64,000 nt of DNA, from the NCBI GenBank assembly GCA_030059665.1, contig JANVYR010000001.1, positions 736,001 through 800,000 of the forward strand, read 5' to 3'. Shown here piece after piece: positions 9,799 through 28,105 of the stretch; position 1 is the first letter of the stretch, and each line of letters starts with the position of its first letter. The DNA is from Candidatus Calditenuis fumarioli. GTDB lineage: Archaea > Thermoproteota > Nitrososphaeria_A > Caldarchaeales > Calditenuaceae. Below the pieces are notes generated by a model, which had not been told where the DNA came from, did not search any database, and saw only the letters and a list, made by a program, of their open reading frames with translations. Both the position numbers and the translations under genes were made by a program.

Positions 9799-9831
9799 GC
9801 CCCGGTAGCTCAGCCTGGTCAGAGCACCGGC
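9799..9831 (+). pseudogene. Isolated intron-less 5' half of a tRNA (matches tRNA-Thr GGU); probable att-like island border
   Basis: GCCCCGG-TA-GCTC-AGCCTGGTCA-GAGC-A-CCGGC gives the acceptor 5' strand, a perfect D arm and the anticodon 5' strand, then similarity stops. The first 15 nt and last 7 nt are identical to the tRNA at 21916. Confidence 0.85.
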
Positions 9832-9957
9832 AGAGTCTCAATGATGCGTATGGACTCGAGGGGATTCAGGATCGCCTTTTCCGTTTCGTGAGACTTTACT
9901 TAGCATAACTGCGTGAACCGTGACTCATGTAGTTCGTTCCTCTCCAGAGGCCTATAT

Positions 9958-10412
9958 TTATGAGGCCGGTTCCGCCCTCAATTCCAGCTCATTAATGTTG
10001 CTTTTTATGACTTGAGGGGCGTTCAAGAACATATTTAAGGTAAACTCCTCACCCCCTCTCCCGAGGCCACGCCTCTATCTCCTCCTCTGTTGGTAACAAT
10101 TCTGGTGGGATCTTGATGCCTGATGCACTCTCATACTTGCTGAGGTCGGCCAAAAAATGGATAACCACCTGCTACGCTGATCGGCTCCTTGTGAACCTTG
10201 CGGAAACCCCACTCCTCAAGGGCCCTTACTTCCCTCTCCCTCCCTTCCTCGGCCTTGGGATTCAAGAACGTATCAAGGATGAACTGCTTATGATATGCCA
10301 TACCCCTTATACCCCTCTACTTCATCAACTGCTCAAGGATGGGTATCGCCTGCATCTCTCCTGTCTGAACCAAAACCTCCTTCAGGAGCTTGATGTGCTC
10401 GGAATCAATCGA
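9958..10412 (-). pseudogene. Fragmented ORF remnants of unknown function
   Basis: Minus-strand frames give protein-like pieces (MAYHKQFILDTFLNPKAEEGREREVRALEEWGFRKV; HFLADLSKYESASGIKIPPELLPTEEEIEAWPRER) broken by stops and frameshifts. Confidence 0.35.
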
Positions 10413-10913
10413 TCGTGATGTTAGCTGTCGTCAGGACTCGGTTCCTGAAGGAACGGTCGAGGTGTTTGCCAGGTTGGTGGGGAAGGAAGGCAAAACCTCC
10501 TCGTGGTGGAGGACTAGGCTGGGGACGAGTACAGACTGGCGAACCGCCTAGTGTATGGAGACGTTAGTGTCTTCTCCCTTAACCCAAGTCGTCTTCAAGA
10601 CGCCTCTCCAGATCAACTTACGGCTACGCATCTACCTAGAGGTTCCAGATAGGTGGGACACGTGGCCTCGGCGCTGGTGAGGCCGCAAGGAAACTCCATT
10701 TACAGATGACTTTGTAGTCTACTCCTACATTATAAAGGAACATGGAAGCTGATAAAAGGTCATCGACCTTAAAACCTCATCAGACATTTTGAATTACTTC
10801 TTAGATTGTATGCGGGAACTAACCATATGATGAACTAGTCGTTTTGAGACTGATTTTAACTGGTTTTAACTGGGTTTGATGTCAGAGTTTGAGGTCGACT
10901 CTCACTTATCGTA

Positions 10914-11882
10914 TTATTCCGCGTCTGACATCATAGATTCTTTAAATTTATTCATACATTCTTCGCAACAGAAATAATATGTCATTCCTCCATGAAGCAG
11001 CACATAAGGGGTGTCTTTGGTCACGAACATCCCACAAACGGGATCACGATAATTTTCTACATTTGTATCGTAATGCCACTTTTTATGTGTTAGCTCATTG
11101 TATCGGGTTTCACCAGGAATATTCCTTATAAGTGATATGACCTCTGCTACTATGCTAACTGCAATTTCCTCCAAATTTGATGCATTTATATCTAGTCCAG
11201 CGGGACATTTGACGATGTTGAGGGTCTCAGGACTGTACCCCTCCCTCTCCAAATATTGTCTTAGAGCTTCCCATCTCCTTCTGCTAGCCACCAATAATAT
11301 ATTTCTAAACCCGTTCTTCAGGGCGAACCGTATCGCGTCCTCGTCATAGCGATTCATAGTTGCGACAATAATGATATCGCCAAGCCTCTTATATTCGCCC
11401 TGTATCTTATTCATTACTTGGTCATATGTTATTTTTGAAACTTTATATCCAATAAAATTGAAAAGCTGCTCTAGTTTGCTGGTCAGCTCGTTCTCACCCG
11501 CTATCGTCACCACTGCAGGCTTAATCGGTTCTAAGAGGAAGATCGCTCCGCCCGAACTAATACAGTAATTGACATGAACTGATGTATCAAGCTGAGGCTT
11601 CTCGGTGCCCGCTATAATAGACCTTGAGCGTTGATTGGGGCCAAAAAACACCAGCCTGCTACGCCCCGATTCTAAGCATTTTACGGCCTCGCTAGCTAGC
11701 CATTCGACGATGCAAGGCCCTCCCAGCCAGCCCTCAATCTCCCCGGTGGGGTGCACTATGGCCTTTGTGCCGGGCTCTACGCTTATGAAGGGCGAGGTTT
11801 CGAGCACGGTCACGAGCACGAAACTCCGTCCTTCCTTGATGAGTTCGGTCGCCCTCTGTAAGATTTGCTCCATCAAAGTCAT
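10914..11882 (-). CDS. coxF: XdhC/CoxF-family molybdo-hydroxylase maturation factor with C-terminal YHS (TRASH) domain
   Basis: GWLGGPCI, VKCPAGLDINASNLEEIAVSIVAEVI (XdhC) and C-terminal DPVCGMFV...YYFCCEECMNKF (YHS). ATG overlaps the coxL stop. Confidence 0.82.
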   Translation of the reverse strand: MTLMEQILQRATELIKEGRSFVLVTVLETSPFISVEPGTKAIVHPTGEIEGWLGGPCIVEWLASEAVKCLESGRSRLVFFGPNQRSRSIIAGTEKPQLDTSVHVNYCISSGGAIFLLEPIKPAVVTIAGENELTSKLEQLFNFIGYKVSKITYDQVMNKIQGEYKRLGDIIIVATMNRYDEDAIRFALKNGFRNILLVASRRRWEALRQYLEREGYSPETLNIVKCPAGLDINASNLEEIAVSIVAEVISLIRNIPGETRYNELTHKKWHYDTNVENYRDPVCGMFVTKDTPYVLLHGGMTYYFCCEECMNKFKESMMSDAE

Positions 11883-14221
11883 AGCTCTGAAACCACGCCC
11901 TTTTCCTTCAAGATGCTGTAGACGCGCCACGGATATAGAGGCATCCCTATCTTGGTCACGCCTAAGTGGCTCAACGCGTCTACTACTGCGTTCTCAAAGG
12001 CTGCTGGTGATCCGACAGTTGGTGATTCGGCCACACCCTTTGCTCCCAACGGATGGTGGGGCGATGGTGTCACAGTGCGGTACGTCTCCCACCGAGGCGT
12101 CTCCACTGCCGTAGGTATAAGGTAGTCCATGAAGGTGTTGCCATAGATGTTTCCCTGCTCATCGTACCTTATCTCTTCTAGGAAGGCAGTCCCGAAGCCC
12201 ATGGTCAGAGCACCATGAATTTGTCCCTCCACGATCATGGGATTGATGACGTTGCCGCAGTCGTCCACAGCCACGAACCGTCTGACTTTCACCTCTCCTG
12301 TACCTCTGTCTATATCTACGACGCAGATATAAGCGCCAAATGGGAACGTCATATTTGGAGGATCATAATAGGTTACCGCTTCCAGACCCGGCTCTAGACC
12401 AGGCGGAGGATTGGTGTAGGCCGCGAAAGCCACGTCCTGTATCGTCACGGATTTCTCGGGAGCCTCCTTCACGTAGAAGCGGCCCTTCTCGAAGACTATG
12501 TCCTCCTCCCTTACCTCGAGGAGGTGGGCCGCTATCTTTTTGGCCTTAGCAATAATTTTATCAGCAGTCACCGCCGCTGCAGCCCCAGCAGTTGGTGTGC
12601 TCCTGCTAGCGTAAGTTCCTAGACCGTAGGGTGCTGTGTCGGTATCACCCTCCTCTACTGTAATGTCCTCCTCGGGTATACCTAATTTCTCTGCTAGAAT
12701 CTGCGCGAACGTCGTCTCGTGACCCTGACCCTGTGACTTGGTCCCGAACCGAGCTATGACCTTGCCAGTCGGGTGAATCCTCACCTCGCAGCTTTCGAAC
12801 ATTTTTATACCGAGAATGTCGAAGATCTTCGAGGGGCCAGCCCCTACAATCTCGACGAATGTGCTTATGCCTATTCCCATCAATTCTCCCCGCTTTCTCT
12901 TCTCCTCTTGCTCTTTTCTAAGCTGCTCATAGTCAATTTTCTCCATTGCAAGCCGCAGAGCTCTCTCGTAGTCTCCGCTGTCATATTCCCATCCGAATAC
13001 ACTGGTATATGGGAATTCCTCCTTCTTGATGAAATTCTTCAGCCTCAGCTCCGCTGGATCCATACCCAATTTGTGGGCCAAAATGTCAATCATCCGCTCG
13101 ATGACGTAGGCTGCTTCCGTTACCCTGAACGAGCACCTATACGCTATGCCACCTGGTGGTTTGTTCGTATGGACACCTGTGACCTCTACATAACCAGCCT
13201 TCCACTTGTAACAACCCGAGACTATGGTGAACAGCCCGAACGGGAACTTGGATGGTGTGGCGTCGCCAAAGAATGCTCCGTGATCGCTTAGCACGCTCAT
13301 CCTTAATGCTAGAAGGGTTCCGTCCTTTTTCGCAGCGACCTCAGCAGTGATGTAAGCGTCCCTTGCAAAGGCAGTGCTGCTTAGGTTCTCGGTTCGCGTC
13401 TCGATCCACTTCACAGGCCTCTCAGTCATGATGGAGGCAAAGGCTGCAACAACGTAACCAGGGTATACGTAGACTTTGCCGCCGAACCCTCCTCCAATGT
13501 CTGGAGCTATTATTCTAATTTTATGTTCAGGGATCTTCGTGAACAGTGAGGCAACTGTCCTGACAGCATGAGGTGCCTGGGTTGTCATCCAAAGCGTGAG
13601 TTTCCCTGTAGGCGGATCGTAATGAGCCACGCAACCACATGTTTCCATATGAGCGACGTGTATCCTATGATAGTAGAAGTTCTCTTTCACAATCACGTCT
13701 GCTTCTTGGAAATACCTATCTGTGAGGTCCTTATCTCCAGCAGACCACGTAAATATCTTGTTAGTTCCCTTGTCCGGCCTGACGAGTGGAGCATCTGGCT
13801 CCAAGGCCCTTTGCGGTGTCATAACAGGTTCTAGAGGCTCGTATTCAACCTCGACTAGTTCGGCAGCATCCTCTGCTATATAGCGGTCTTCGGCGACTAC
13901 CGCAGCAACCTCTTGATATGGATAATACACTTTGTCTAATGCTAGAACCGGTTGGCGATCATTCATTAAGGTAGGCATCATGCTTAGTCCTGCGGCCTGC
14001 AAGTCCTTTCCAGTTATTACCGCAACAACTCCGGGTACCTTTAATGCCCTCTCGACGTCAATCCTTTTGATCTTAGCATGTGCGTATGGACTCCTGATCA
14101 GCTTGACGTGGAGCATGTTGGGGAGCTTGATGTCGTCCACATATGTCCCCTTACCTCTGATGAAACGCGCGTCCTCCTTCCTCTTTAATGGGTGGCCCAT
14201 CCCATGGATTGTGGCTGTCAT
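11879..14221 (-). CDS. coxL: Aerobic carbon monoxide dehydrogenase large subunit, form I
   Basis: Form I active-site motif AYRCSFR; [30 protein letters not shown]. Confidence 0.95.
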
Positions 14222-14745
14222 CTCCTCACCACCAATTCGAGGGAACGAACTCCCATCCGATTGAGCTTTTCGGCGGCGTACTGTATAGCTTCGACGATCT
14301 TGACGTAGCCTGTGCACCTGCAGAGATTCCCTGCGATCATCTGCCTTATCTCGTCTTCGGTAGGCATTGGATTTTGATGTAGTAGCCAAGCAGATTGCAT
14401 CAACAGTCCAGGCGTACAGTACCCACACTGAAGACCGTGTTTCTCCCAAAAGCCTTCTTGAACCGGATGTAGCCTACCATCCCTTTCAAGCCCTTCGACT
14501 GTGTATATCTCTGATCCATCGAGCTGCACCGCGAAGAGGGTACAACTCTTGACGGTTACGAAATCCTCGGACCACGGGAATCTCACTAGGATCGTGCATG
14601 CGCCACAGTTAGATGTGTCGCAGCCTATGTGCGTGCCTGTCAAGTTCAGCAGCTCCCTGATCATGTGTACCGCCAATAGCCGCGACTCGACGTCTAGTTC
14701 CTTCTTTACTCCGTTTACAACCACACTTATCTTATGTCTTCCCAT
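14218..14745 (-). CDS. coxS: Aerobic CO dehydrogenase small (2Fe-2S) subunit
   Basis: [27 protein letters not shown]. Confidence 0.95.
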
Positions 14746-14752
14746 CTTTACA

Positions 14753-15622
14753 TCACCTAACCAATCTCTCGTAGACCGTTTTGATGCCTCTGAGGAGGAG
14801 CACTCTCATTACGTCTCTCTTGTACCAGTCCGGGCCCCTTAAGTCGGAGACGGGATTGACCTTCATTTTGTCAAACGCATTCTTAGCCGAGGTCAGCAAG
14901 TTCTCTAAGCCCCTTTTATCGATTATCGATTCCTCTATTTCCTCCGCAGGCAGAGGTGTAGGTCCCGCGTTTGTGAAAGCCACTCCTGCACGCGTGACCC
15001 TATTATCATCATCAACGGTCAGTTGGACCGCCACCGCCGCTATCGCGTAATCGCCCGTGCGCCTCTCAAACTTCAGGTATGTCCCTCCCGAGTATCCGTC
15101 CCAATGTGGGACGTTCACCTCCACGAGCACCTCGTCTGGTCGCAATTCTGTTGTAAAGGGTCCCTTGTAGAAGTCCTTTGCCGGAATCTCCCGTGTGCCC
15201 CTCTTGCTCTTCACAACATATTTTGATTTCAGACTGATGAAAACTGCCGGTAAATCATTGCCTGGATCGCCGTGGGCTGCGTTACCTCCGACGGTGCCCA
15301 TGTTTCTCACTTGAGGGTCTGCGACCTGTCTAGAGGCCGCGCGCAGAATGTCATATTGGGATGGGAACTTAGTTCGTTCCAATTGCGCAATTCTTACCAA
15401 TGCACCGATCTTTAATGAACCGTCTTCCATGTTCATGTAATTTAGGCCTTTGACCCGATTGATGTCAACGACCAGTGCAGGCCGGGCAATCCTCAGCTTC
15501 ATTAAGGGTATCAAGCTCTGTCCCCCGGCCAGTATCTTGGCCTCTTCGCCCCTCTCATCTAGTAACTTTAGGACGTCATCTAAAGAGTTTGCAGGAATGT
15601 ATTCGAATTGTGGTGGGTACAT
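14753..15622 (-). CDS. coxM: Aerobic CO dehydrogenase medium (FAD) subunit
   Basis: [28 protein letters not shown]. Confidence 0.95.
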
Positions 15623-15699
15623 TTCGACACCTTACCCCAATACCTTCTATTAAACCTATCCTTACACATGCCGCGCGATTTGATTACAGTTGGCTGATC

Positions 15700-16000
15700 A
15701 CCTATGAGGGCTTGAAACTCGTCCTCGACGTGCACATGGACCGCAAGTTCCTCGACCATCCCATTGGACTCCAGCTCCCACTAGTCCTCGGCCGTGGGGA
15801 ACCCGACGAGGGCGAAGACTAGCTCCGTCCTGCCGTCCTCCGGAATGATGTGGACGCCAGCGCACGTGGTGACGAGCCCTGATTGAGGAGAGCGTGGGGT
15901 TGGACCACGCTGGTAGGCCGTGGTCGCCGCCGATGACCAGCAGGTCGCACTCGCGGTCCACGAGTTCCGCGATGGTCGTCCGGTTCTTCGCCACGCGTTA
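15700..16000 (-). pseudogene. Frameshifted ORF remnant
   Basis: Overlapping frames MAKNRTTIAELVDRECDLLVIGGDHGLP and GVHIIPEDGRTELVFALVGFPTAED look like pieces of one broken gene. Confidence 0.3.
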
Positions 16001-16339
16001 CCATCATCTACCTCCGTGGAACGATCGTTAATCAGGGGAATCATTAGCGTGATCTTCGTGTCCGCCGAGGCGGCGAAGCTCCTAGGCCTAATCGAGTTTT
16101 CGGCGCGAAGTCGCAGGCAATGGAGGCAACCTAGACTCTCCAGCGGTGCGGATCTAGCCGAGCATGATCCGCGTCGCCCTTGAACTAACTAGCCATGAGT
16201 TCTACGAGCCGGGTTGCCACCTCCTCGGAAAGTCCGAATGACAGCCAGAGGTCACAGAAGAGAAAAGTGCTGTGCCAGAAACCAAGAGAAGGCGTTCCAG
16301 ACTGGCTTCCGTTATTTCCAAGATGTCTGAGGTTGTCGT

Positions 16340-16699
16340 TCACCTCCTGAGAGTCTTACCGTGAACGATCTTGGCCATCAAAGTAATGACTCCCGCGACG
16401 AGGGCCATCACGAAATCTGTTGTGAACAGGACCTCAGAAGGCGCTCTGATGAGTACCTCATTGTTGCCGACCCTAAGGACGTAATTTAGCGCGAACGCTC
16501 CGGCTGTCGGGACGCTCAGCCCCATAGGCCTGACGACCTGAGTCCCTGCAATTATTCCCACGAGGAAGACCAGCGGTACCGTGAGCCCCCTCAGGCTCAT
16601 CAACGACCCGGACCACTTCTTCCCGGCAAAAATCGACCCGATTAGGGTCGTCGAGGCCGCGAGCAGCAGGAAAAGGAAGAGAAGGGCCCGCGGCTTCAT
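16340..16699 (-). CDS. Small membrane protein (about three TM segments), unknown function
   Basis: MKPRALLFLFLLLAAS...; 119 aa with hydrophobic segments; lies downstream of the ATPase gene in the same orientation. Confidence 0.6.
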   Translation of the reverse strand: MKPRALLFLFLLLAASTTLIGSIFAGKKWSGSLMSLRGLTVPLVFLVGIIAGTQVVRPMGLSVPTAGAFALNYVLRVGNNEVLIRAPSEVLFTTDFVMALVAGVITLMAKIVHGKTLRR

Positions 16700-16709
16700 G
16701 GAAGCCCAC

Positions 16710-17270
16710 CTCACGTGACCTGCCGGCCGACCTCCGCGGCGCGCTTCGCCTCGAACGGCACGAAGGTCAGAACGGCCCTCGCCCACAAGGGGTCCCCGAT
16801 CTCGGCGAACCTCTGTCCCCTCCCTCTCCGCCTTCAGCACGGCCTTCCGGACCGTTTTCACGGAGAGGTCCACGTTTCAACCGCCCACTCCTGCGCCCCT
16901 CTGTCCATCCCAGGACCTCGAGCATCCAGCTCCTCAGGTCCTCCTCGCTCTCTATCTGCTCGGTGGAGAGCTGGCCCAGTATATGCCCGCCGAGCGTCAG
17001 CCCCAGGGTCAGACCCTTCCCCCACGAGGGCCGTAGCGTTGACCTGCAAAGGCAGATCCGACTATCCCTCCATCACTGTCCTGTCCGCGGCCTCGGAAAG
17101 GGAGACCCCTGTCTTGACGTATCCCAAATCAGATCAAAGCAACTCTGATGCTATCGACTGGACGGTCCTGCGACCGTCTGTCTTGATCCAGTAACAAAGA
17201 CCATGTTGCAGACGTCTGCATTCACTTTCCTCTCATCGCCCTGAGATGGGGAGTGAGGCTATCACATTTA
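16710..17270 (-). pseudogene. Degenerate gene between the ATPase and the small membrane protein
   Basis: Protein-like fragments in different frames (GHILGQLSTEQIESEEDLRSWMLEVLGW; FAEIGDPLWARAVLTFVPFEAKRAAEVGRQVT*). Confidence 0.35.
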
Positions 17271-17284
17271 ATCCTCGTGGCACT

Positions 17285-19201
17285 TCATGGTTGAAGCCCG
17301 CATCGTTGCAGACGACCCTCATCTACACGCTCGGTCCCCGCGCGCCAGACCACCTTTACCGCCCTTCCTGTCCTAGGCGTCGTAACGACGGCCTCTTCCC
17401 ATCCTAGCGTAGCCAATGCATCCCTCTGCGCGTCGTTTAGCATCATCCTCTCCGAGACGACCTCCAGATCGTCGGCACCCGTCAGCCTCTTGCAGATCAC
17501 CGTCCCAGGAAGGGAGACGGCGTCGTCGGATATCCTCGACGGCCTCTGGTCTACTATCCAGACCGACTCTCCGAACTTCCTCACCTCCCTGAGCATCTGC
17601 TCTACGATAGTAGTCCTCCCGGTCTCGGTCCTGGGGAGCAGGTTGTGCGCCTCCTCGCAGACGACGACGTGGATCTTGCTTCCCCTGCCCGACCTCCTCC
17701 TCTGCTCGAAGATCGCCTTGAGAACCAGCCAAGAGACGACGTTCCTCTCCCGCTCAGAGCTGAGGGACGAAAGGTCTATCACCGCGTCCTCCGTAAGCAG
17801 CTCGCCGATGCCGATTGCACCTTCCCCTCCTTCTATGAACCTCGATGCACTTCCGTCCGCAAGCTCGGAGATCCTAGAATAAAGCGAGAAGAGCGCGTCC
17901 CTTGCCCTCCTCGAGTCCAGGAATCCCCTGATCAGTTCTGAACCGCTTCCCTCGAGGTACCGGACGAAGAGCGATGGCCTGAAGTCTTTGAACTCGGCCC
18001 TGAACCTCCTGTATGCTGTCCTGAAGACGGCCGACTGGAGCGGGCCGAACTCCTCGGGCCAGGCCATGGAGAATATGTCCGAAAGGAACACCGACTCCTC
18101 TTCAGGATCTGACTCAGCGGTAAGGAGCTTTAGACCCTCCACATCGCCTCCGGGCCCCACGACCACGTCGGCATTCTCCCTGTACTCTCCGTGCCTGTCC
18201 AGAACGAGGTACCTGATCCCGAGCGACCTGAGCCTCGTCAACAGGGCCTTGACCAGGGAGGTCTTGCCCGATCCGGGGGAGCCGAAGACCGCCAGGGAGT
18301 GAGGGAGGTGCTCGATGGGCACTGAGACCGGAACCCTTCCACCTGGTCCGTGAGAGAACCCTATCAGGAGACCTCTGCCTCCGGCCTCGCCCCTCATCGG
18401 ACGGTGGAAGACCTCTCTTCTGACCACGGCATAGCTCAGGGATGGCGAGAGAACAGGACCCGTCCTGAGGAGCACAGCTAGCTCTTTGGTGGTCAGGTAA
18501 TGCTCCCTGGGCCTTCTGGACCTCTCCAGCTCCGCCATCAGATAGGATCGGGCCAGAGGCTTCAGAACCCTCACGGCGGGGCCGTCGTGAGCTAGGACCT
18601 CGACAGATACGGCCCAGCCCTCCTCGAGCAGCTCGCTGGCCCTCCAGAGCTCCCTCCTCATCCTCTCCATCCTAGGGAGAAGCTCGGGCCTGACCTCCTC
18701 CCTTCCCTCGGACCTCCCTCCTTCCCTCTCGGTCACGATGGACCTGATGGAAGCCTCTGCTTTGCTGAGGTCCTCGGAGACCTCCCTGAGATGAGCCGAG
18801 ATCCTGAACCTGTCCAGGAATCCCCTGGCCGGCCTGGCGGAGATCACCAGGTCGTACTCGAGTCCGGCGGAGGACGTGGTCCTGAGGAAACCCTCTACGT
18901 CAGCCGAATGCTGCCACCCGTCGAGGAGGCGCTTAATTCCGAGTGACGTGCGGTCAGCGTCACCGAGCTGGAACGTCCCTCCAGGGCTGCATGCTCCGGT
19001 CATGGACCGCAGCAGCCTCACCACATCCCCCGGTTCCATGCCCTCTATACCGATCAGCAGGGAGAAGTTCGCCTTCCTGACCGAGTAGACCGTGACGAGC
19101 TTCCTGTTCATGGCCCAGCACGCCCTAAGTATCCTAGACCTCTCCTCGGTCGAGAGCTCGGGCAAAGAGACCGAGACGAGCTCAGGGACCGAGATATGCA
19201 A
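17285..19201 (-). CDS. HerA/VirB4/FtsK-like (DUF87-type) P-loop ATPase with long N-terminal extension
   Basis: Walker A GSPGSGKT, LDRHGEY, Walker B VCEEAHN, MLREVRKFG, VDQRPS. Confidence 0.85.
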   Translation of the reverse strand: MHISVPELVSVSLPELSTEERSRILRACWAMNRKLVTVYSVRKANFSLLIGIEGMEPGDVVRLLRSMTGACSPGGTFQLGDADRTSLGIKRLLDGWQHSADVEGFLRTTSSAGLEYDLVISARPARGFLDRFRISAHLREVSEDLSKAEASIRSIVTEREGGRSEGREEVRPELLPRMERMRRELWRASELLEEGWAVSVEVLAHDGPAVRVLKPLARSYLMAELERSRRPREHYLTTKELAVLLRTGPVLSPSLSYAVVRREVFHRPMRGEAGGRGLLIGFSHGPGGRVPVSVPIEHLPHSLAVFGSPGSGKTSLVKALLTRLRSLGIRYLVLDRHGEYRENADVVVGPGGDVEGLKLLTAESDPEEESVFLSDIFSMAWPEEFGPLQSAVFRTAYRRFRAEFKDFRPSLFVRYLEGSGSELIRGFLDSRRARDALFSLYSRISELADGSASRFIEGGEGAIGIGELLTEDAVIDLSSLSSERERNVVSWLVLKAIFEQRRRSGRGSKIHVVVCEEAHNLLPRTETGRTTIVEQMLREVRKFGESVWIVDQRPSRISDDAVSLPGTVICKRLTGADDLEVVSERMMLNDAQRDALATLGWEEAVVTTPRTGRAVKVVWRAGTERVDEGRLQRCGLQP

Positions 19202-19817
19202 CCAATCTCGCCCTCCTGCCGTTCAGGCTGACCAGCTCCTCGGCGACCAGGCCCTCCTCCTCGAGCTCCCTCACCCACTTCCTGACCGTCGGCAGCGAGA
19301 GGCCTGCAACCCTAGCCAGCTCGGACTTCGTCACGCTTCCCCTCTCCCTCAGGACCCGGAGTATCCTGTCCCTGGGGCCCTCGATGGCGTCAGTCCTCGA
19401 ATGGACGTAGTTCAGGCCTCCGTCGGTCCAGAGATCCTTTCCCCCTGATGGCGTTACCGCCTCTTCCCGGCCCATCAGTCCTGAGATGGCGCCTGCGGCC
19501 ATACGCGCTAAAGCGAGGGGGCCGATGCCGGCGAACCTCCGGAGGAGCGCCAGGGCGGTAGCCGCTATAGCAGCAGCGCCCACCATGGGGTTCTCCACGG
19601 AGAGGACCGCGGCCGAGAGGGTCGCCGTGACCAGGAGACCGGTCTTAAGGACCCTCAGACTCCCGGTCAGGAGAGCTGAGAGCAGGGTGAGATAGAGTCC
19701 CATCGAGAGGACCAGGGATGAGGTCCCCATCCACTCGGTGATGCCGTAGACCGCGATGGCCGGGATCGCCGGCGCGAGCAGCTTGACCGTTGCCGAGCCG
19801 GTGCCCATCCAGGTCAA
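19182..19817 (-). CDS. Membrane protein with C-terminal winged HTH
   Basis: About four hydrophobic helices, then RDRILRVLRERGSVTKSELARVAGLSLPTVRKWVRELEEEGLV; overlaps the ATPase start by 20 nt. Confidence 0.72.
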   Translation of the reverse strand: MTWMGTGSATVKLLAPAIPAIAVYGITEWMGTSSLVLSMGLYLTLLSALLTGSLRVLKTGLLVTATLSAAVLSVENPMVGAAAIAATALALLRRFAGIGPLALARMAAGAISGLMGREEAVTPSGGKDLWTDGGLNYVHSRTDAIEGPRDRILRVLRERGSVTKSELARVAGLSLPTVRKWVRELEEEGLVAEELVSLNGRRARLVAYLGP

Positions 19818-19979
19818 CGGAGGACGTACCCGCTTATCCGAATGCGACCCGAAACGGAATTTCTGGGCTTCTCCAGGCGGGGGAGGGGCTGGACCCCGGA
19901 CCGGGTTGATGGGAAAGGAAGGATGATAACTCGGTCTTAGCTGGGTCAGACCGGAGACGGGAGCGTCGGTGAGCGGAAC

Positions 19980-20693
19980 TTGTGTGACGATCCATACGAG
20001 GAGTACGGGTTGGACGCTCTGGGCGGGCTCCTCGTCCTGCTGATACTGCTCCTTGCGATATTGGTCCTCATCGATGCCATAGTGAAGGAGATCACAAAGC
20101 TCCTCATGAGCGTGAAGGCGATGCTGGACGCTCTGGTCGCGACGCTCATCTCGGCCTTTATGGTGGTGGTTATCGGGGCGCTTAACGCATTCGTCTATTT
20201 ACTCGTCGCCGTTGCAACCCTGATACTCGGCGTTCAGCTGTACAAGCGCTCCGACAAAATAATCGGGGCGCTCTCGTCCTTAGCACGCTGGATAGCGGGC
20301 CATATACATTACCGGATGATCGAGCCCCTCCTCGCGATCAGGGAGCTCAGGAGTACGCTGGATAGGATGTCCGGTGACACTTCCTGTCTGATGGTTCTCA
20401 TGGAGCTCTTAAATGGTCCGGCTGGAAGCATCAGCGAGCTCGGTGAAAGGGTCGGTAAAAGGGCCCTCAGCACCGTTCACACCCACATACGGCACCTGGT
20501 GGATTGTGGTCTGGTGGAGAGGGTCGAAGAGAGGATAACGGGCAGGAGGGGCTCTTCGGCCGAGGTCAGGGTGGGGCTGGCGAGGAGGTTCGACAGATGG
20601 ACCGCGAGGCTCTACCTCAGATGGAGGATAGGAAGGCTGCTGAAAGCCGGTGAAAGGGTTGCTGAAAGGCAAGGTTTGAGTAGCTTTCACTGA
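19980..20693 (+). CDS. Membrane-anchored ArsR-like winged-HTH protein
   Basis: Hydrophobic N-terminal half; C-terminal LMELLNGPAGSISELGERVGKRALSTVHTHIRHLVDCGLVER. Confidence 0.68.
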   Translation: MCDDPYEEYGLDALGGLLVLLILLLAILVLIDAIVKEITKLLMSVKAMLDALVATLISAFMVVVIGALNAFVYLLVAVATLILGVQLYKRSDKIIGALSSLARWIAGHIHYRMIEPLLAIRELRSTLDRMSGDTSCLMVLMELLNGPAGSISELGERVGKRALSTVHTHIRHLVDCGLVERVEERITGRRGSSAEVRVGLARRFDRWTARLYLRWRIGRLLKAGERVAERQGLSSFH

Positions 20694-20911
20694 CAGCTGA
20701 TTAGCGAGGAAGGCTGTACGGCCGCCAACGGTCGGATGGGATATAGTGGTACCTTGGTGAGAGAATGAGTGATGGGAAGTTTCAGGACCCCGGGGTTGAC
20801 CCGGAAGCGGTCGCGGCCCCGGGCCCGGGGGATAAGGCCGCGCCCCCTGATGGCGTTTTTGGGCGAAGCGCCCCCATCGGGGAATCTCTCGGGAGGGGAG
20901 GGGTTGAGAGA

Positions 20912-21694
20912 TTGTCCAGAAAGTTCTACGCCGACGTCCACTGGAGGAAGGACCACGTGGTCGTAGCAGACGGGATCGTTAAGAGGTTCAGGAAGCTCGG
21001 CGACATACCCGCACAGGCCGGAGACGAGCTGTACGTGGATGCGATGCTACCGAGCAGATTTCAGGAGTTCGAGGAGTTGCTGAACAGAGGTGTCCGGGTA
21101 TTCTACCTGAGGAGGACCGACGTCTTGGAGAAGTACAGGGAGAAGAAGAGCGATGAGGACGACGCCAGGGCGCTGATGAGAATACCACAACACCTCTTCA
21201 GGGAGCTCATAGGAAAGGAGCTGGAGGTCAGAAGGCTTCTGCACAAATACACGACGACGAAATCGCACCTGGAACTTGTAAAGCAACTGTCACGCGAGGC
21301 GGATGATGAGGAGACCAGGGCACACTACAGACATCTCATCAATCACCTGAGGAGGCGGAAATACAAACTGGCTAAAGAGATAGACGCGTTGGCTAGAAAC
21401 TTCCTTCCGGTCCAACAGATAGCATGGAAACTTGGAATCATTTCAAACAATTGCCTCTTCGGCAGGGTAGCTCTGGTTCAGCTGCTGTTGTACGTGGACT
21501 TCAGCTTAGGGCTGAGAAAGATATTGACCTATACCGGTAACTACTATCCTAACGACGGAAGGTACAGCAGAACTCTAAAGGATGCAACCGAATCGCTGAC
21601 AATCAGCGTCAAGAGAAGGCAGAAGATCAAGGGAAAAGAGGTGAGAGAGGTCCTGAAAACCATAAAGAACGTGCTGAAGGCGATGAAGAGGTGA
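20912..21694 (+). CDS. Compact IS110-family-like transposase (about 260 aa)
   Basis: RuvC-like acidic residues FYADVH, LYVDA and KSDEDDARAL; coiled-coil middle; shortened C-terminal domain. TTG start at 20912 follows GGAGG elements. Confidence 0.65.
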   Translation: MSRKFYADVHWRKDHVVVADGIVKRFRKLGDIPAQAGDELYVDAMLPSRFQEFEELLNRGVRVFYLRRTDVLEKYREKKSDEDDARALMRIPQHLFRELIGKELEVRRLLHKYTTTKSHLELVKQLSREADDEETRAHYRHLINHLRRRKYKLAKEIDALARNFLPVQQIAWKLGIISNNCLFGRVALVQLLLYVDFSLGLRKILTYTGNYYPNDGRYSRTLKDATESLTISVKRRQKIKGKEVREVLKTIKNVLKAMKR

Positions 21695-21698
21695 GAAC

Positions 21699-21811
21699 GG
21701 GGGAAAGAGCCGGATGGGGACCTGGGCAATAGAGCACCGAATGCAGACCTACCGAAAGGGGGGATGAAGCAATTACCAAGCCAATGCTCTAGGTTCTCAT
21801 TCCGGCTCCCC
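21699..21811 (+). ncRNA. Candidate structured ncRNA downstream of the IS110-like transposase
   Basis: GAGCCGGA (21707-14)/TCCGGCTC (21801-08), TGGGGACCT/AGGTTCTCA (two G-U pairs) and AGAGCA/TGCTCT form a long interrupted stem enclosing a GAAA hairpin. Confidence 0.5.
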
Positions 21812-21837
21812 TAGACGGCATACGGCTGGCGATCTAA

Positions 21838-21856
21838 CCCCTCCCCTCTCTTTTTC
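21838..21856 (+). terminator. Pyrimidine/oligo-T tract, likely archaeal terminator
   Basis: CCCCTCCCCTCTCTTTTTC follows the structured region. Confidence 0.4.
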
Positions 21857-21884
21857 AATGCCCTCTTCTCACGTTAATTACAGG

Positions 21885-21891
21885 TTTAAAT
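21885..21891 (+). promoter_or_regulatory. TATA box of tRNA-Thr
   Basis: TTTAAAT about 25-30 nt upstream of the tRNA 5' end. Confidence 0.55.
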
Positions 21892-21915
21892 GTAGAGTTC
21901 ACGGAATTCCGCTTA

Positions 21916-22013
21916 GCCCCGGTAGCTCAGGTGGCGGAGAATTGGGAGAACCCCCAATCTGAATCACCGGCTTGGTAAGCCGGGGGTCGCGGGTTCAAGT
22001 CCCGCCCGGGGCT
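21916..22013 (+). tRNA. tRNA-Thr(GGU) with a 25-nt intron at position 24/25 (21940-21964); CCA not encoded
   Basis: GCCCCGG/CCGGGGC acceptor stem, CCGGC-TT-GGT-AA-GCCGG anticodon arm, GCGGG-TTCAAGT-CCCGC T arm. Removing 21940-21964 restores the GCTC/GAGC D stem. Confidence 0.88.
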
Positions 22014-22450
22014 CACCTGGCTTAATTGGGACGTTCTCAGACGGAATTGGGCGAGCCGTCCGGGAGGACTCGACAGAAACCCAGGCGTTAGGAGATGCCC
22101 AAACAGCACACGGCCTAACGTTGGAATACGCTCAAACGGTCCCGATGTGGACTGGGCCTTCGTGGAGATGGTGATGCTCCAGAACTATAGCTGCAGGTGG
22201 GCAAGGGAGTGCCTGCGCCTCATGAGGCGCTACGCTCATTCCCTGTGCTCAGGCGATGCCTCATCCCTCTTGACGCTCGGTCCCCACGAATGGCTCGAGG
22301 CGATGAAGGCGCGCGGCATGCTCTCGAGGGTCTAGGGCTCCGAGTGAGTGGAGAGCGATCAGAGAGGCTTATGGGCTCAAGTGGAGCCTAGGCGAATGCG
22401 CATCACCTCCGATGCTCTCTGGAGGAGCATATTCGAGCCTTCTGTCCGAT
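21979..22450 (+). pseudogene. SSV-type split tyrosine integrase C-fragment, inactivated
   Basis: Frame is open from the anticodon loop through the tRNA 3' half (GGRGFKSRPG) into VDWAF...YSCRWARECLRLMRRYAHSLCSGDASSLL...AMKARGMLSRV*. After a frameshift it reads EWRAIREAYGLKWS. These resemble archaeal integrase N-proximal motifs as I recall them; the catalytic domain is absent. Confidence 0.7.
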
Positions 22451-22521
22451 GCGCACAGGGTCTGAAAGCCCTTGAGGAGGGCAGGGAAGCGCGCTCCCCT
22501 CAAACATAGGCCTCGGTTGAT

Positions 22522-23259
22522 GTGTTGATGGACCAGGGTCTTATTACGACCTTTGCTGGTATCAGTAGGTGTCTCGTTGTGGCGAGGGGTCTCCGGCTCA
22601 GACTCGACCGGAAGGACGTTGAGATTTTGAGGGCGCTCCAAGAAGACGCAAGGATTCCCCTCAAAGAGCTGGCCCTCAAAGTCGGTCTCAGCATACCATC
22701 TATAAGGAACAGGATCGATAAGTTGTTGGAACTAGGAGTCATAAAGAAGTTCACCGTTGTTATAGATTCCTCCAGGATCGCCGAGAGGGTCAGGGCGCTG
22801 ATATTGTGTAAGGTCCCGACAGATCGTCTCAAGGGATTAGGGGAGAAGCTCAGTAAGCTTGACTCCGTGAGGGAGCTACACGTGCTTGCCGGCTCGTATA
22901 ACATGGTGTTGAAGGCGGAATTCAGAGACTTCGAGGAGGTGATGAGGTTCGTCCATGAGAGGTTACCAGGAACTCTAGACATGGAGGTTCTGATAATTTC
23001 AGGCACCTATAAGGAGGAGTATGGAGGAAACGTCTACCCTGACGAGGCCATCAGGATGAGGTGTGACTTCTGCCACTCACTTATCGTCGAGAAACCGGTC
23101 GTGAGGGAGATAGGAGGAGGCAGGTACTATTTCTCCAGTGAGGAGTGCGCCGAGGCCTTCGAGCGGAGGTTGAGGGGCGAGGAGAAGGAGGTACCCTGGT
23201 GGGAGAAGCAGTCCCAAGAACCTTCAAGAACCCGTAGGAGGCGGAAGGGAGGCGGATAG
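22522..23259 (+). CDS. Lrp/AsnC-family regulator with C-terminal TRASH/YHS metal-binding domain (CopR/CopT-like)
   Basis: LDRKDVEILRALQEDARIPLKELA HTH, AsnC ligand domain, CDFC...YYFSSEEC. The true start may be somewhat downstream. Confidence 0.85.
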   Translation: MLMDQGLITTFAGISRCLVVARGLRLRLDRKDVEILRALQEDARIPLKELALKVGLSIPSIRNRIDKLLELGVIKKFTVVIDSSRIAERVRALILCKVPTDRLKGLGEKLSKLDSVRELHVLAGSYNMVLKAEFRDFEEVMRFVHERLPGTLDMEVLIISGTYKEEYGGNVYPDEAIRMRCDFCHSLIVEKPVVREIGGGRYYFSSEECAEAFERRLRGEEKEVPWWEKQSQEPSRTRRRRKGGG

Positions 23260-23973
23260 AAGCGCCTGAGTAATCGGCCCATCGCTCCTTAACCTCACGA
23301 TTCCCTCCGAGTCTATGACGAACGTGGTGTCGACGTATGCGATCCTCCATTCTCTGGCCAACTCGCCGCTCTCGTCCAGGACCAGATGCCATCGCCTGTC
23401 TCCCCACTGAGAAACGAATGAGGTCAGAACGTCGGCGTCTTCCGGCGGCGGTACTCCTGGACGTCCCTCAAGTCCAGCCATCTTCAACACCTGCCTCGTC
23501 CAGAGGTCCACCACAATTACGACCACTCTATCTCCCTTCTCCTTGACGACCTCCTTAATCGCCGGACCGACCGAAGCGCAGCTGGGGCACCAAGCGGCCA
23601 TGAACCAAACCACGACGAACTTCCCCCTGAGCTCCGAGAGCCTCATCGTCCTGCCATCGATGGTCCTGAAGGTGGAGTCCGGCGCCCTCATGCCTTCGTA
23701 TGGGCCTACCTTCGAGTCCGCTGCGGTCCGTTGGGTCTCGGTCGTCACGCTCCTTTCTGCTAACCTAGTGGGAAGTCCGCTTTGGCGTCCAGCGTCCCAA
23801 CTCCCAAAGAGGGCCAAGAACGCAATAACCCCTATGAGGAGAAGGCAACACGCTAAGAAGGTTGCTACCTGCCAGCTTCGCCTTCCGCTACCTTCCTTGA
23901 AAGCTGTTGACCTCTTAGCTCTCTTTACGTTGGATGAACTGGAGGTTCGCCCTCCACCACAGCACGTAGCCAC
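23224..23973 (-). CDS. Membrane-anchored TlpA/ResA-like thioredoxin-fold protein with N-terminal CCGGG
   Basis: MATCCGGG, one TM helix, FMAAWCPSC active-site motif, TTFVIDSEG. Confidence 0.8.
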   Translation of the reverse strand: MATCCGGGRTSSSSNVKRAKRSTAFKEGSGRRSWQVATFLACCLLLIGVIAFLALFGSWDAGRQSGLPTRLAERSVTTETQRTAADSKVGPYEGMRAPDSTFRTIDGRTMRLSELRGKFVVVWFMAAWCPSCASVGPAIKEVVKEKGDRVVVIVVDLWTRQVLKMAGLEGRPGVPPPEDADVLTSFVSQWGDRRWHLVLDESGELAREWRIAYVDTTFVIDSEGIVRLRSDGPITQALLSASLPPPTGS

Positions 23974-23985
23974 GGCTCCCCACCT

Positions 23986-24627: not shown

Positions 24628-24812
24628 AACGTCCCCTTCTATATCCCGACTAAAGCCTTGTCGTTTAATCTTTCGAAGCTTCACGCCCTTTGGGATCTCG
24701 TCGAAGCGATTGTTTTCGGGACATCAGCCTCAAAACCTGAAGGTAGAGCTGTAGAGCGCTTAAACGATTTACAGGAACGCACTAAATGTTATGAGGCTTT
24801 AACCGTGTAGTG

Positions 24813-27118: not shown

Positions 27119-27176
27119 TTCCTCGCGAAATCGCCCCTAAACTTTTATAAAAAGATTTATTATTTATACTGCATTT

Positions 27177-28104: not shown

Positions 28105-28105
28105 T

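Follow-up and report, generated by a model that had tools for sequence, protein, structure and literature searches.

Homing endonuclease genes of introns and inteins, and the TnpB and IscB proteins of IS200/IS605 elements, follow a scheme in which the empty allele is cut, the occupied allele is immune through its broken site, and repair copies the element. Split tRNAs and multi-intron tRNAs are known from archaea related to Candidatus Calditenuis fumarioli, the source of the 64,000-nucleotide stretch of DNA analysed here (the window; contig JANVYR010000001.1, positions 736,001 to 800,000). The closest published case is the 'a-b' insertion sequence of 1,868 bp at tRNA-Thr(GGU) of Candidatus Caldiarchaeum subterraneum, for which Sugahara et al. 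(2012; PLoS One 7:e32504, PMC3293823) presented a model of intron gain and scattered tRNA fragments through insertion, at exactly this tRNA. Intron transposition among the tRNA genes of Thermoproteales has also been described (Fujishima et al., 2010, as cited in bioRxiv 10.64898/2026.10.13.758758). In the RNA-guided TIGR-Tas systems, two tigRNA spacers pair with opposite DNA strands (PMC12045711).

Here we describe an island at tRNA-Thr(GGU) that is likely to represent a single insertion into the native gene by a unit of the family of Sugahara et al. (2012), for which we propose RNA-guided cutting and homing. Insertion-driven intron gain at this tRNA is already the proposal of these authors (PMC3293823).

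Borders, empty site and cargo

A tRNA-Thr(GGU) half and a complete tRNA-Thr(GGU) flank 12.1 kb of DNA, and both contain CACCGGC (Table 1). An earlier note on this DNA had described the borders as two 5' halves of one tRNA, intron-less on the left and with a 25-nt intron on the right, and with dissimilar D loops; this is confirmed at 9799-9831 and 21916-22013. The left half comprises the acceptor 5' strand, a complete D arm and the anticodon-stem 5' strand, with CACCGGC at its end, and non-tRNA sequence begins directly after position 31. The right copy is recognized as a full tRNA (Rfam, 48 bits), reads by hand as tRNA-Thr with the anticodon GGT, and has its intron directly after GAG. The anticodon-loop intron found in tRNA-Thr(GGU) of all five congeners is absent from the island-bearing genome (G000).

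The two border copies do share their first 15 nt, as the earlier note observed, but this block is not specific to them, being present also in tRNA-Thr(CGU), tRNA-Thr(UGU) and tRNA-Phe of the same genome; assignment of the half to tRNA-Thr(GGU) therefore needs other evidence. This is provided by the whole sequence of the half and by its upstream flank, both of which resemble those of the congeners' tRNA-Thr(GGU), and by the closest relative (G002), where an intact, uninterrupted tRNA-Thr lies directly upstream of phnD. The half is thus a remnant of the native gene and not of another tRNA, and the comparison with relatives that the earlier note had proposed yields an empty-site allele. Both junctions are also present in contigs from other hot-spring metagenomes, in favor of a stable arrangement.

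Comparison with relatives and base composition favor a foreign origin of the island. In three congeners (G001-G003) nothing in the DNA corresponds to 9832-29800 beyond the tRNA itself and weak matches to CoxL paralogs. The flanks have about 63% GC; within the island the value is 47-54% from 10 to 16 kb and 59-64% from 16 to 20 kb. The gene that follows tRNA-Thr in G002 corresponds to window position 53169; because the right-side synteny differs in this way, and GC is also low at 22-30 kb, to the right of the rebuilt tRNA, foreign DNA may reach past the tRNA into 22-30 kb.

Table 1. Features of the island and its borders, in window coordinates.
Feature	Position	Strand	Remarks
Native 5' half of tRNA-Thr(GGU), displaced; positions 1-31, native upstream flank adjoining phnD	9799..9831	+	Sequence and 5' flank like congeners' tRNA-Thr(GGU); intact gene here in G002
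CACCGGC, left copy; 7-nt block, tRNA positions 25-31	9825..9831	+	Would lie between nick sites predicted from the two guides (TasR rule)
Variable left arm and cargo	9832..20563		GC 47-54% over 10-16 kb; no DNA match in G001-G003
68-nt repeat	9835-9902		Second copy at C1:220103-220170, beside winged-helix gene
Dispersed short repeats in left arm	9968-10410
XdhC-like maturation factor with C-terminal YHS/TRASH metal-binding domain (cargo)	10914..11930	-
Molybdenum hydroxylase large subunit, CoxL/xanthine dehydrogenase family (cargo)	11879..14449	-	10 paralogs in genome, best 50% identity
[2Fe-2S] small subunit, CoxS-like (cargo)	14218..14745	-
FAD-binding medium subunit, CoxM-like (cargo)	14753..15622	-
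HerA/FtsK-like P-loop ATPase (cargo)	17285..19201	-	Type usual in archaeal plasmid- or virus-like elements
Membrane protein with C-terminal winged-helix domain (cargo)	19182..19817	-
Membrane protein, weak MarR-like winged helix	19980..20693	+	3' end runs into module's conserved upstream region
Conserved region 5' of nuclease-like gene	20564..20764	+	Common to Lys copy and fragment C2:56408-56706
309-aa RuvC, coiled-coil and Nop-like protein (TasR/IS110 fold)	20765..21694	+	Conserved acidic D57, D92, D133
Putative guide RNA, about 115 nt	21699..21813	+	Predicted fold: long closing stem, internal loop with both guides, terminal hairpin
Guide 1, AGAGCACCG	21731..21739	+	Sense, tRNA positions 21-29; native half 9/9, rebuilt exon 8/9
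Guide 2, TACCAAGCC	21774..21782	+	Antisense, tRNA positions 29-37; 9/9
TATA-like promoter box TTTAAAT	21883..21892	+	About 25 nt 5' of rebuilt tRNA; read from sequence; similar box at Asn and Lys copies
Replacement 5' exon, element-borne, tRNA positions 1-24	21916..21939	+	D loop unlike all 5 congeners compared
D-arm intron, 25 nt, position 24/25	21940..21964	+	Homologous to introns of Asn and Lys copies; interrupts guide-1 target
3' part of tRNA-Thr(GGU) from position 25	21965..22013	+	Starts with right CACCGGC copy (21965-21971); without anticodon-loop intron

A TasR/IS110-fold protein and a putative dual-guide RNA

The model of the 309-aa protein (pLDDT 95.7) has TIGR-TasR (9mty) as its best structural match (Z 14.7, 239 of 258 residues aligned), with further matches to TasH (Z about 13) and to IS621 and ISCro4 (Z 12.4-12.8 over 248-249 residues). 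When the family profile was compared with the PDB, TasH was matched at E 8e-7 and IS621 at E 0.005. Sequence identity to TIGR-Tas is only 10-13%, and the acidic residues are invariant across the family. Weak matches to PF01548 occur in 6 of 34 family members; there is no match to PF02371 and no invariant serine in the family, and the C-terminal region is predicted to consist entirely of helices. The modelled fold would fit either a nuclease or a recombinase and does not separate the two. The only named near match in the protein database (P0004) is 43-44% identical to the 309-aa protein and is presumably ORF 'b' of Sugahara et al. (2012).

In the adjoining RNA a conserved frame holds two variable 9-nt stretches, and the stem, internal loop and hairpin are kept in all three copies compared (Thr, Asn and Lys). 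Of the 18 guide positions, 17-18 agree in each case with the tRNA at which the element lies, against 11-15 for other tRNAs. The 25-nt intron cuts the guide-1 target in two in the rebuilt tRNA gene, which is therefore probably immune to the element. Under the TasR rule, in which the cut falls 3' of the base paired with the fifth spacer base and which is taken over from a distantly related protein (10-16% sequence identity), the predicted bottom-strand nick would lie at 24|25, which coincides with the intron/exon junction in each of the five cases that have this guide frame, and the predicted top-strand nick near 33|34. CACCGGC looks like the leftover duplication of such a staggered cut, which fits better than the recombinase crossover region that the earlier note had taken it for. 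However, identity between stump and native tRNA stops at 31, 31, 35 and 33, and this variable end, which a fixed staggered cut does not predict, counts against one.

The same order of stump, gene, conserved RNA, TATA box and tRNA with a homologous intron after GAG is found at tRNA-Asn and tRNA-Lys of this genome, the sites of the two paralogs of the 309-aa gene (87% and 66% identity); in G002 the tRNA-Asn gene is uninterrupted and has the same left flank. The architecture is also seen at tRNA-Met in another genus (G050), at tRNA-Leu in G055 and at tRNA-Thr(GGU) in G024, which appears to be the Caldiarchaeum subterraneum genome of the published case (PMC3293823) and whose copy has a pair of 9-nt guides that match its tRNA-Thr. 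The Asn and Lys copies span 1.3-1.6 kb, with space for the TasR-like gene alone, and the lengths of those at Asn, Lys and Met and in C. subterraneum range over 1.3-1.9 kb. No sequence common to the Thr, Asn and Lys copies was found at their left ends, and the anticodon stem of the Lys stump (GCCGG) matches neither the guides nor the rebuilt gene. In related genera the family is multi-copy and IS-like; relatives in G024 occur in multiple copies, whose 1.6-kb bodies and defined ends are conserved and which lie at non-tRNA sites, behaving as a true insertion sequence. Homing alone does not explain these copies.

Proposed mechanism and alternatives

The conserved right end of the unit carries, in order, the gene for the small RuvC/coiled-coil/Nop protein, the putative two-guide RNA, a promoter, a replacement 5' exon (positions 1-24) and a 25-nt spacer that the host splicing endonuclease could remove as a D-arm intron. 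In the mechanism that we propose, the two 9-nt guides of the one RNA would read both DNA strands of tRNA positions 21-37, and the protein-RNA complex would recognize the uninterrupted tRNA gene and make staggered cuts, in the bottom strand at 24|25 and in the top strand near 33|34. The unit would be placed between the cuts, most likely through repair that copies an already occupied allele (homing); the old 5' half (1-31) would stay as a dead stump, positions 25-31 would be duplicated, and the gene would be rebuilt from the promoter, 5' exon and intron of the unit joined to the 3' part. Neither copy could be cut again, because the intron interrupts the guide-1 site in the rebuilt gene and the stump has no guide-2 site. 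The DNA between the stump and the conserved right end would be a passenger, in this case 10.7 kb of low GC with a molybdenum-hydroxylase operon and plasmid-like genes.

Our data support the gain of the tRNA-Thr(GGU) intron through insertion, with promoter, 5' exon and intron all derived from the element. To this extent the first inference of the earlier note stands, while the tyrosine recombinase that it invoked was not found among the main ORFs of the island, and the protein has a TasR/IS110 fold and adjoins a putative dual-guide RNA that matches the tRNA gene. Its second inference, a crossover in the 15-nt block, is unsupported because the intron would then be expected in the left copy, whereas it is in the right one. 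The missing anticodon-loop intron and the D loop of the 5' exon, which is unlike that of the congeners, may reflect co-conversion, and we count them in favor of our explanation. The idea that tRNA introns evolve against integration holds in altered form: the intron would come with the element and disrupt the element's own target. A mobile block that rebuilds a tRNA gene with its own promoter, front half and intron, and whose putative guide RNA spells the gene in its uninterrupted form, suggests a route by which unusual tRNA introns of archaea arise.

The history of the island may have had two steps, in which a short element of about 1.4-1.9 kb rebuilt the tRNA and a 10-kb foreign block later entered between stump and element; this we regard as possible but doubtful. 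It would agree with the lengths of the Asn, Lys, Met and C. subterraneum units and with the uneven GC within the island. The block begins 3 nt past the stump, with the 68-nt repeat, and since this repeat is found elsewhere in the genome the cargo could have reached the junction as a second element. Against this, nothing of a short element's left arm remains between stump and block (left arms are in any case not conserved among the copies), and neither an integrase nor a transposase was found for the block; moreover, two events would alter the history of the island and not the mechanism at the tRNA. A change of mechanism would follow if the protein were an IS110-type bridge recombinase, with circular excision, an RNA bridging the tRNA target and the circle junction, and strand exchange in CACCGGC, without a double-strand break or homing. 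This is unlikely, even though the structural matches to IS621 and ISCro4, the weak PF01548 matches, the defined ends of the multi-copy 1.6-kb bodies in G024 and the 7-nt repeat on both sides of the unit, which resembles a recombination core, all argue for it. Only one guide loop was found in the RNA, without the second, donor-binding loop, no stretch of the unit of at least 8 nt matches its own left end, and the left ends of the copies have no sequence in common. In addition, the catalytic serine of IS110 enzymes sits on a beta-sheet, whereas the family lacks PF02371 and an invariant serine and its C-terminal part is predicted to be all helical, and TasR is the best structural match.

It is very improbable that a tyrosine recombinase of pNOB8 or SSV type exchanged strands in the 7-bp block, as in the earlier note and in the model of Sugahara et al. 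(2012), who noted the likeness to pNOB8-type integration borders (PMC3293823); this would require an integrase since lost or supplied in trans. The direct repeats of a tRNA segment at both ends of the island and its plasmid-like genes (HerA/FtsK ATPase, winged-helix proteins) would suit this origin, but no integrase or tyrosine recombinase domain was found in the sizeable ORFs of the island (Pfam, PHROGs), the 1.3-1.6-kb Asn and Lys copies fit only the TasR-like gene, and the guide-target matches would be an unexplained coincidence, five times over. We find it scarcely credible that the left half is a working piece of a split or giant-intron tRNA, transcribed from the native promoter and spliced to the 3' part by the splicing endonuclease. 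The half keeps its native upstream flank, and related archaea have split and multi-intron tRNAs (reviewed in PMC3293823); however, a search of the genome found no complementary leader, no trailer complement and no lone 3' half, the downstream gene is complete with its own promoter, and no bulge-helix-bulge partner is evident past position 31.

Comparison with known systems

Our preferred reading of an RNA-guided insertion places the locus closest to the C. subterraneum 'a-b' sequence, with which it shares the tRNA species and the layout: an upstream 5' fragment, inserted DNA whose ORF has the orientation of the tRNA, and a rebuilt tRNA that has gained an additional intron at 24/25. In contrast to the 1,868 bp of 'a-b', the present element, including 10.7 kb of cargo, measures 12.1 kb and comes from another family of the same order. 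Sugahara et al. (PMC3293823) traced their element to a pNOB8-type integrase and gave no description of a guide RNA or of the protein's fold. The RuvC, coiled coil and Nop domain resemble those of TIGR-TasR (Faure et al., 2025, Science; PMC12045711; PDB 9mty; Z 14.7), as do the two 9-nt spacers, one for each strand of a continuous target of about 18 bp, and the frame of stem, internal loop and hairpin that holds the guide. TIGR-Tas has a guide array where each present element has one guide unit; here the host is archaeal, the gene is multi-copy and IS-like, and the nuclease activity is putative. For the present elements tRNA genes are evident as the natural target; for TIGR-Tas, both the natural targets and the role are reported to be unknown (PMC12045711).

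With IS110/IS1111 elements that use bridge or seek RNAs (Durrant et al., 2024, PMC11208160; 8wt6-8wt9) the element shares a DEDD/RuvC-like N-terminus, a coiled coil, a helical RNA-binding domain, a non-coding RNA that adjoins the gene and has guides for both DNA strands, and site-specific insertion. It differs from them in having no evident serine-bearing Tnp domain, one guide loop instead of two and left ends that are not conserved, and in bringing part of the target gene and an intron. As in homing endonucleases and TnpB/IscB, we propose that the empty allele is cut, that the site broken by insertion is immune and that repair copies the element. Unlike in homing endonucleases, recognition would use RNA guides, splicing would remove no more than a 25-30-nt intron at the end of the element, and the gene is restored through a duplicated 5' exon and its own promoter, not by splicing of the whole element. 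The intron transposition of Thermoproteales is similar in that homologous introns occupy different tRNA genes at sites compatible with a bulge-helix-bulge; as far as that case is cited no vehicle was identified for it, whereas here the Thr, Asn, Lys and Met introns each end a gene-bearing element.

Borders of the island and its surroundings

Within this archaeal genome (1.57 Mb in three contigs, 62% GC), the island begins at an isolated 5' half of tRNA-Thr(GGU), the stump, and ends in a complete, rebuilt copy of the same tRNA gene. Hand reading of both borders, with Rfam for the full tRNA, agreed with the earlier note on all coordinates, the shared 7-nt block, the differing D loops and the position at which the intron ends. 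The first 15 nt are indeed common to both copies, and are weak evidence by themselves, as the same 15 nt open three other tRNAs of the genome. A split tRNA gene was considered and rejected: a genome-wide search for a complement to the trailer of the stump and for lone 3' halves ending CCGGGGC gave complete tRNAs only. The sole match to the trailer in the genome is a 68-nt direct repeat (9835-9902 and C1:220103-220170, 88% identical), whose second copy has the 3' end of one gene on one side and a winged-helix gene on the other. ARAGORN, with introns allowed, made seven calls of "giant intron" tRNAs; five are false, lying inside coding sequence, and those at tRNA-Asn and tRNA-Lys are real.

Features of the tRNA-Thr(GGU) borders and the adjoining module (window positions)
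Feature	Position	Strand	Description
tRNA-Thr 5' stump	9799-9831	+	tRNA positions 1-31: acceptor 5' strand, full D arm, anticodon-stem 5' strand ending CACCGGC; unrelated DNA beyond
309-aa gene	20765-21694		
Guide RNA, ~115 nt	21699-21813		3' of the 309-aa gene
Guide 1, Thr copy	21731-21739		AGAGCACCG; 5' side of loop; sense of tRNA positions 21-29
Guide 2, Thr copy	21774-21782		TACCAAGCC; 3' side of loop; reverse complement of positions 29-37
Complete tRNA	21916-22013	+	Rfam 48 bits; not typed by ARAGORN; read by hand as Thr
Rebuilt tRNA, 5' exon	21916-21939	+	
Rebuilt tRNA, 25-nt insert	21940-21964	+	After D-stem GAG, position 24/25
Rebuilt tRNA beyond insert			CACCGGC, then loop TTGGTAA (anticodon GGT = Thr), then remainder

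The check proposed in the earlier note, whether relatives lacking the island have tRNA-Thr directly upstream of phnD, came out positive in the closest congener, G002 (phnD 82% identical), where an uninterrupted tRNA-Thr occupies this place. Its 5' half is similar to the stump, and over the last 34 nt it does not differ from the window tRNA. The D loop and upstream flank of the stump are similar to those of two further congeners (G001 and G003), and the D loop of the rebuilt gene is unlike that of all five congeners compared. An anticodon-loop intron of 15-26 nt is present in this tRNA in five of five congeners and absent from the genome studied here. No DNA counterpart of 9832-29800 was found in G001-G003 beyond weak matches to CoxL paralogs and the tRNA itself, and over 10-16 kb the GC content is 47-54%, lower than the roughly 63% of the flanks. 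The half is the remnant of the native gene, and the island is an insertion. The tRNA-Thr(GGU) of G002 (L002:2624-2714) has C32 and C33 in its anticodon loop, and its 15-nt intron is unlike the 26-nt intron of the other congeners.

On the 3' side, the gene that follows tRNA-Thr in G002 is the counterpart of the gene at 53169 in the window, and the intervening 31 kb encode siroheme, sulfate-assimilation and heme-synthesis enzymes. Since tRNA-Thr(GGU) of G008, from another genus, adjoins a homolog of the glycosyltransferase gene at 41446-43383, the linkage seems old, and G002 has probably lost or moved the block. The stretch from 22000 to 30000, which codes for an Lrp/AsnC-TRASH regulator, a thioredoxin-like protein and a pyridine-nucleotide disulphide oxidoreductase, is likewise low in GC (40-59%, with 26-28 kb at 40-46%). 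As no DNA match to it was found in G001-G003, it may be a second acquired block. No native 3' remnant was seen at the sites syntenic with G002, G004 and G001 (window ~53100, C1:362700-363245 and C3:60000-61000). A CRISPR array with the 24-nt repeat GAATCTCGCGAAGAGAGTTGAAAG lies at C1:362700-363190, directly 5' of tRNA-Leu(GAG); in G002 that tRNA follows tRNA-Asn.

A module of protein gene and guide RNA at tRNA genes

The 309-aa gene at the right-hand end of the island has three paralogs in the genome, at C1:627176-627946 (87% identity), C2:492171-493070 (66%) and C1:325144-325848 (34%). Around the first two, the parts follow one another as in the Thr copy. A tRNA stump that breaks off in the anticodon stem or loop comes first, and 170-500 nt of unrelated DNA separate it from the gene. 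After the gene come a conserved non-coding block (about 115 nt), a TTTAAAT box and finally a complete tRNA (Asn-GUU or Lys-UUU), whose 30-nt insert after GAG is a homolog of the Thr intron. In G002 tRNA-Asn is uninterrupted and has the same 1.3-kb left flank. Like architecture was found at tRNA-Met in G050 and tRNA-Leu in G055, both from other families of the order, and at tRNA-Thr(GGU) in G024, which we take to be the genome of Caldiarchaeum subterraneum. The relatives in G024 include 1.6-kb copies that are 86-96% alike with conserved ends, whereas the left ends of the three copies studied here are not conserved; alignment of the left arms at six junctions gave nothing except the match of the Thr arm with C1:220170.

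Several further loci carry parts of this family. In G024, the 1.6-kb copies L043-L050 lie at non-tRNA sites, with different guide stretches in each; with shifted ends, the guides of L050 agree with its flanking DNA at about 16 of 18 positions, and those of L046 and L047 fit partly. The most distant paralog (34%; L013, C1:324940-326200) also has a GC-rich folded block, about 110 nt long, on its 3' side, and its neighbours are genes typical of integrated elements; an upstream ORF contains a hairpin like those of the tRNA introns (TATTGGGG...CCCCAATA). At C2:56408-57300, a 300-nt fragment homologous to 20564-20864 (the conserved upstream region plus about 40 codons from the start of the 309-aa gene) runs into another ORF with a LAGLIDADG-like motif, whose homolog lies upstream of tRNA-Lys(UUU) in G004. 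At L033, L036 and L096 (in G032, G040 and G017) a complete tRNA, tRNA-Val in two of the three, lies on the opposite strand 240-280 nt downstream of the family ORF, which, by its layout, is a different mode of association between family and tRNA.

The RNA block, which matches no Rfam family, folds alike in the three copies: a stem of about 25 bp closes the structure, a large internal loop follows, and a hairpin forms its tip. Nine variable bases lie on either side of the loop, set in a conserved frame that reads GCAAT-N9-AATGC in Thr and Asn. In five elements (Thr, Asn, Lys, Met and C. subterraneum) these guides match their own target at 17-18 of 18 positions, and cross matches reach 11-15. Because the Thr and Asn modules are 88% identical over 896 nt, the differences between guides are specific. 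Guide 1 is in the sense of the tRNA and cannot pair with its transcript, therefore the target is DNA and not RNA. Guide 1 of the Thr copy matches the native stump at nine of nine positions and the rebuilt exon at eight. A target that matches the Thr guides at 18 of 18 positions is present in G001, G003, G004 and G006, which have no copy of the gene; G002 has two mismatches to the Thr element, C32 and C33, in the guide-2 site. There is one guide unit per element, downstream of the gene, and no tandem array. In TIGR-Tas systems, motifs like box C and box D flank the spacers; words like GAUGA and CUGA stand beside the guides in the Asn and Lys copies, and the Thr copy has CUAG at one such place, as judged by eye only.

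The 309-aa ORF belongs to no Pfam or PHROG family, and a sequence search of the PDB with the single protein returned nothing useful. The family is rare in sequence databases, with four near matches, of which the only one named in the protein database, P0004, is presumably the ORF of the C. subterraneum insertion sequence. A family profile gave no match in six same-genus genomes and as many as 43 in single genomes of related genera, many of these broken or at contig ends; by this distribution, the family is IS-like in its behaviour. Six of 34 members match PF01548, the DEDD RuvC-like N-terminal domain of IS110/IS1111 recombinases, weakly (best E 0.0098, below the Pfam threshold). Among solved structures, the profile matches TasH at E 8e-7 and the IS621 transposase at E 0.005. 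The AlphaFold model (34 sequences; pLDDT 95.7) contains RuvC, coiled-coil and Nop domains. It matches TIGR-TasR (9mty) with a Foldseek probability of 1.00 and a VIA-align Z of 14.7 over 239 of 258 residues, followed by the Nop domain of TasH (Z ~13) and IS621/ISCro4 (Z 12.4-12.8; IS621 12.5), with archaeal Nop5 well behind (Z ~8). The acidic residues D57, D92 and D133 are invariant or nearly so. In IS110 enzymes the catalytic serine sits on a beta-sheet. Here PF02371, the serine-bearing Tnp domain, is not among the families listed, no serine is invariant, and the C-terminal half is predicted to be all helical, with no strand after model residue 97. A helical C-terminal half with no invariant serine leans, on the model, towards a TasR-like nuclease.

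Predicted cut sites and a proposed route of insertion

Each strand is nicked by TasR on the 3' side of the base that pairs with spacer base 5, so that 3' overhangs of 8 nt are left. By analogy, guide 1 would direct a bottom-strand nick at 24|25, the exact intron/exon junction, in five of five elements with the same guide frame, and guide 2 one in the top strand at about 33|34. The stump follows the native tRNA as far as position 31 (Thr), 31 (Asn), 35 (Lys) and 33 (Met). Filling of the overhangs on both sides of the inserted unit would duplicate positions 25-33, and CACCGGC (25-31) could be the remainder of such a staggered-cut duplication. The "intron" would then be the final 25-30 nt of the inserted DNA. 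This should be harmless, because a relaxed bulge-helix-bulge can be drawn from it and its neighbouring exons: the motif drawn by hand has a strong intron hairpin, a helix of 3-4 bp between exon end and intron end, and unpaired triplets at both splice sites. Minimum-energy folds of the region contain the hairpin and the adjacent unpaired triplets, and do not prove a canonical bulge-helix-bulge. In the Asn copy, the single difference between stump and rebuilt exon (T to A, in the D loop) completes the short helix.

From the observed anatomy, empty sites, fold, guide-target matches and recurrence, we tentatively propose an RNA-guided element with a TasR-like nuclease that drives itself into essential tRNA genes present in single copy, keeps the host viable by rebuilding the gene, and plants a short spliceable intron exactly where it cuts, as self-immunity. 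The protein-RNA complex would most likely cut an uninterrupted tRNA gene, and the unit would become fixed between the cuts. The rebuilt gene and the stump would both be immune, because the intron splits the guide-1 site and the stump has no guide-2 site. The idea in the earlier note that introns protect against integration thus takes another form: the protection would be planted by the element itself, against its own re-entry. The integrase-type element proposed there found no counterpart, since scanned ORFs of at least 98 aa in the island include no integrase, intact or split, in Pfam or PHROGs.

We favour break-repair copying (homing) over recombination of the IS110 type, because the RNA has one guide loop, the left ends are unconserved, no donor guide was found, and co-conversion would account for the foreign D loop as well as for the loss of the anticodon-loop intron seen in congeners. 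An IS110-type reaction would use a donor-binding loop, and in place of this the RNA has a single internal loop; no match of at least 8 nt was found between the left end of any element and its right-hand module. Homing alone fits less well with the relatives in G024, which look like a true insertion sequence at non-tRNA sites with guides that differ per copy.

The island encodes an XdhC-like factor, three molybdenum-hydroxylase subunits, a HerA/FtsK-like ATPase and two winged-helix membrane proteins (Pfam, PHROGs). The conserved module starts near 20564, and the DNA from 9832 up to there is variable; about 10.7 kb of foreign genes lie within the same borders. A single 12-kb unit is plausible because homing would carry any DNA between stump and module, and the Thr copy may indicate that such a unit can carry cargo. 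That a 10-kb block landed separately and later between stump and module is about as plausible. The block opens, 3 nt past the stump, with the 68-nt repeat that recurs at C1:220103-220170; the repeat could mark where an element of another kind ends. Between 9968 and 10410 lie dispersed short repeats that occur in about ten copies across C1, C2 and C3 at 74-90% identity, and the 101-aa "ORF" at 10113-10418 is probably one of these and not a gene.

In contigs from other hot-spring metagenomes both junctions and long parts of the cargo recur with few differences, so the arrangement is stable; none of these contigs shows a genuine joint of an empty site. Among the public runs listed as holding this stretch there is none of RNA. 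Contigs from four runs with 12-kb "skips" between the tRNA copies were rejected as empty sites: their shorter side is 21-27 nt and the anticodon arms between differ, so they derive from other tRNAs. Contigs from two runs join 20645 to 21680, skipping the 309-aa ORF almost exactly (depth 4-10, shorter side 28 nt); they may represent a variant without the gene that keeps RNA, promoter and intron, or an assembly artefact.

Implications and comparison with known systems

The feature is real, and its interest lies in a testable mechanism of tRNA-intron gain and in a natural target for a TasR-like system. A 2026 census regards the route by which tRNA introns arrive as still open (bioRxiv 10.64898/2026.10.13.758758). 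The origin of non-canonical introns and tRNA fragments becomes testable here, with the intron visible as the terminal piece of a mobile unit, at the predicted cut site. If our proposal is true, decayed elements would leave orphan non-canonical introns and stray tRNA halves, and the family would be a general source of odd tRNA introns, and possibly of split tRNAs, in thermophilic archaea. The Thr copy, with 10 kb of metabolic and plasmid-like cargo, would be an RNA-guided genomic island. The natural targets and role of TIGR-Tas systems were reported as unknown (PMC12045711); the guides of the five elements appear to name such targets outright, and TIGR-Tas-like systems would gain both a natural target and a biological role.

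The likeness to TIGR-Tas lies in the RuvC/coiled-coil/Nop fold and in two guides of about 9 nt on opposite strands of a contiguous ~18-bp site, a way of targeting that has been shown for those systems (PMC12045711). A TIGR array, however, holds several guide units in tandem, whereas each element here has one. With IS110/IS1111 elements the family shares, in its G024 relatives, multiple copies with defined ends; their RNA has separate target- and donor-binding loops, in contrast to the one loop here. Unlike tyrosine-recombinase elements of the pNOB8/SSV type, which have an integrase at the border, the island has none that we found among its scanned ORFs. The closest architecture is the 'a-b' family of Sugahara et al., with a homolog of ORF 'b' on the same strand as an adjacent rebuilt tRNA with a 24/25 intron, and an upstream 5' fragment. 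The insertion sequence that these authors described at tRNA-Thr(GGU) of C. subterraneum is 1,868 bp long, contains an ORF of 813 bp and lies between a 5' fragment and a rebuilt tRNA with an extra 24/25 intron; they proposed that integration leads to intron gain and scatters fragments (Sugahara et al., 2012; PMC3293823). A full-text literature search found no paper linking TasR or tigRNA with tRNA genes and introns. The architecture at this tRNA was thus known already from that study, and the fold and dual-guide logic from TIGR-Tas and IS110; new here are the cargo, the better match of guide 1 to the stump than to the rebuilt exon, the missing anticodon-loop intron and the nick-site reading of the 7-nt block.
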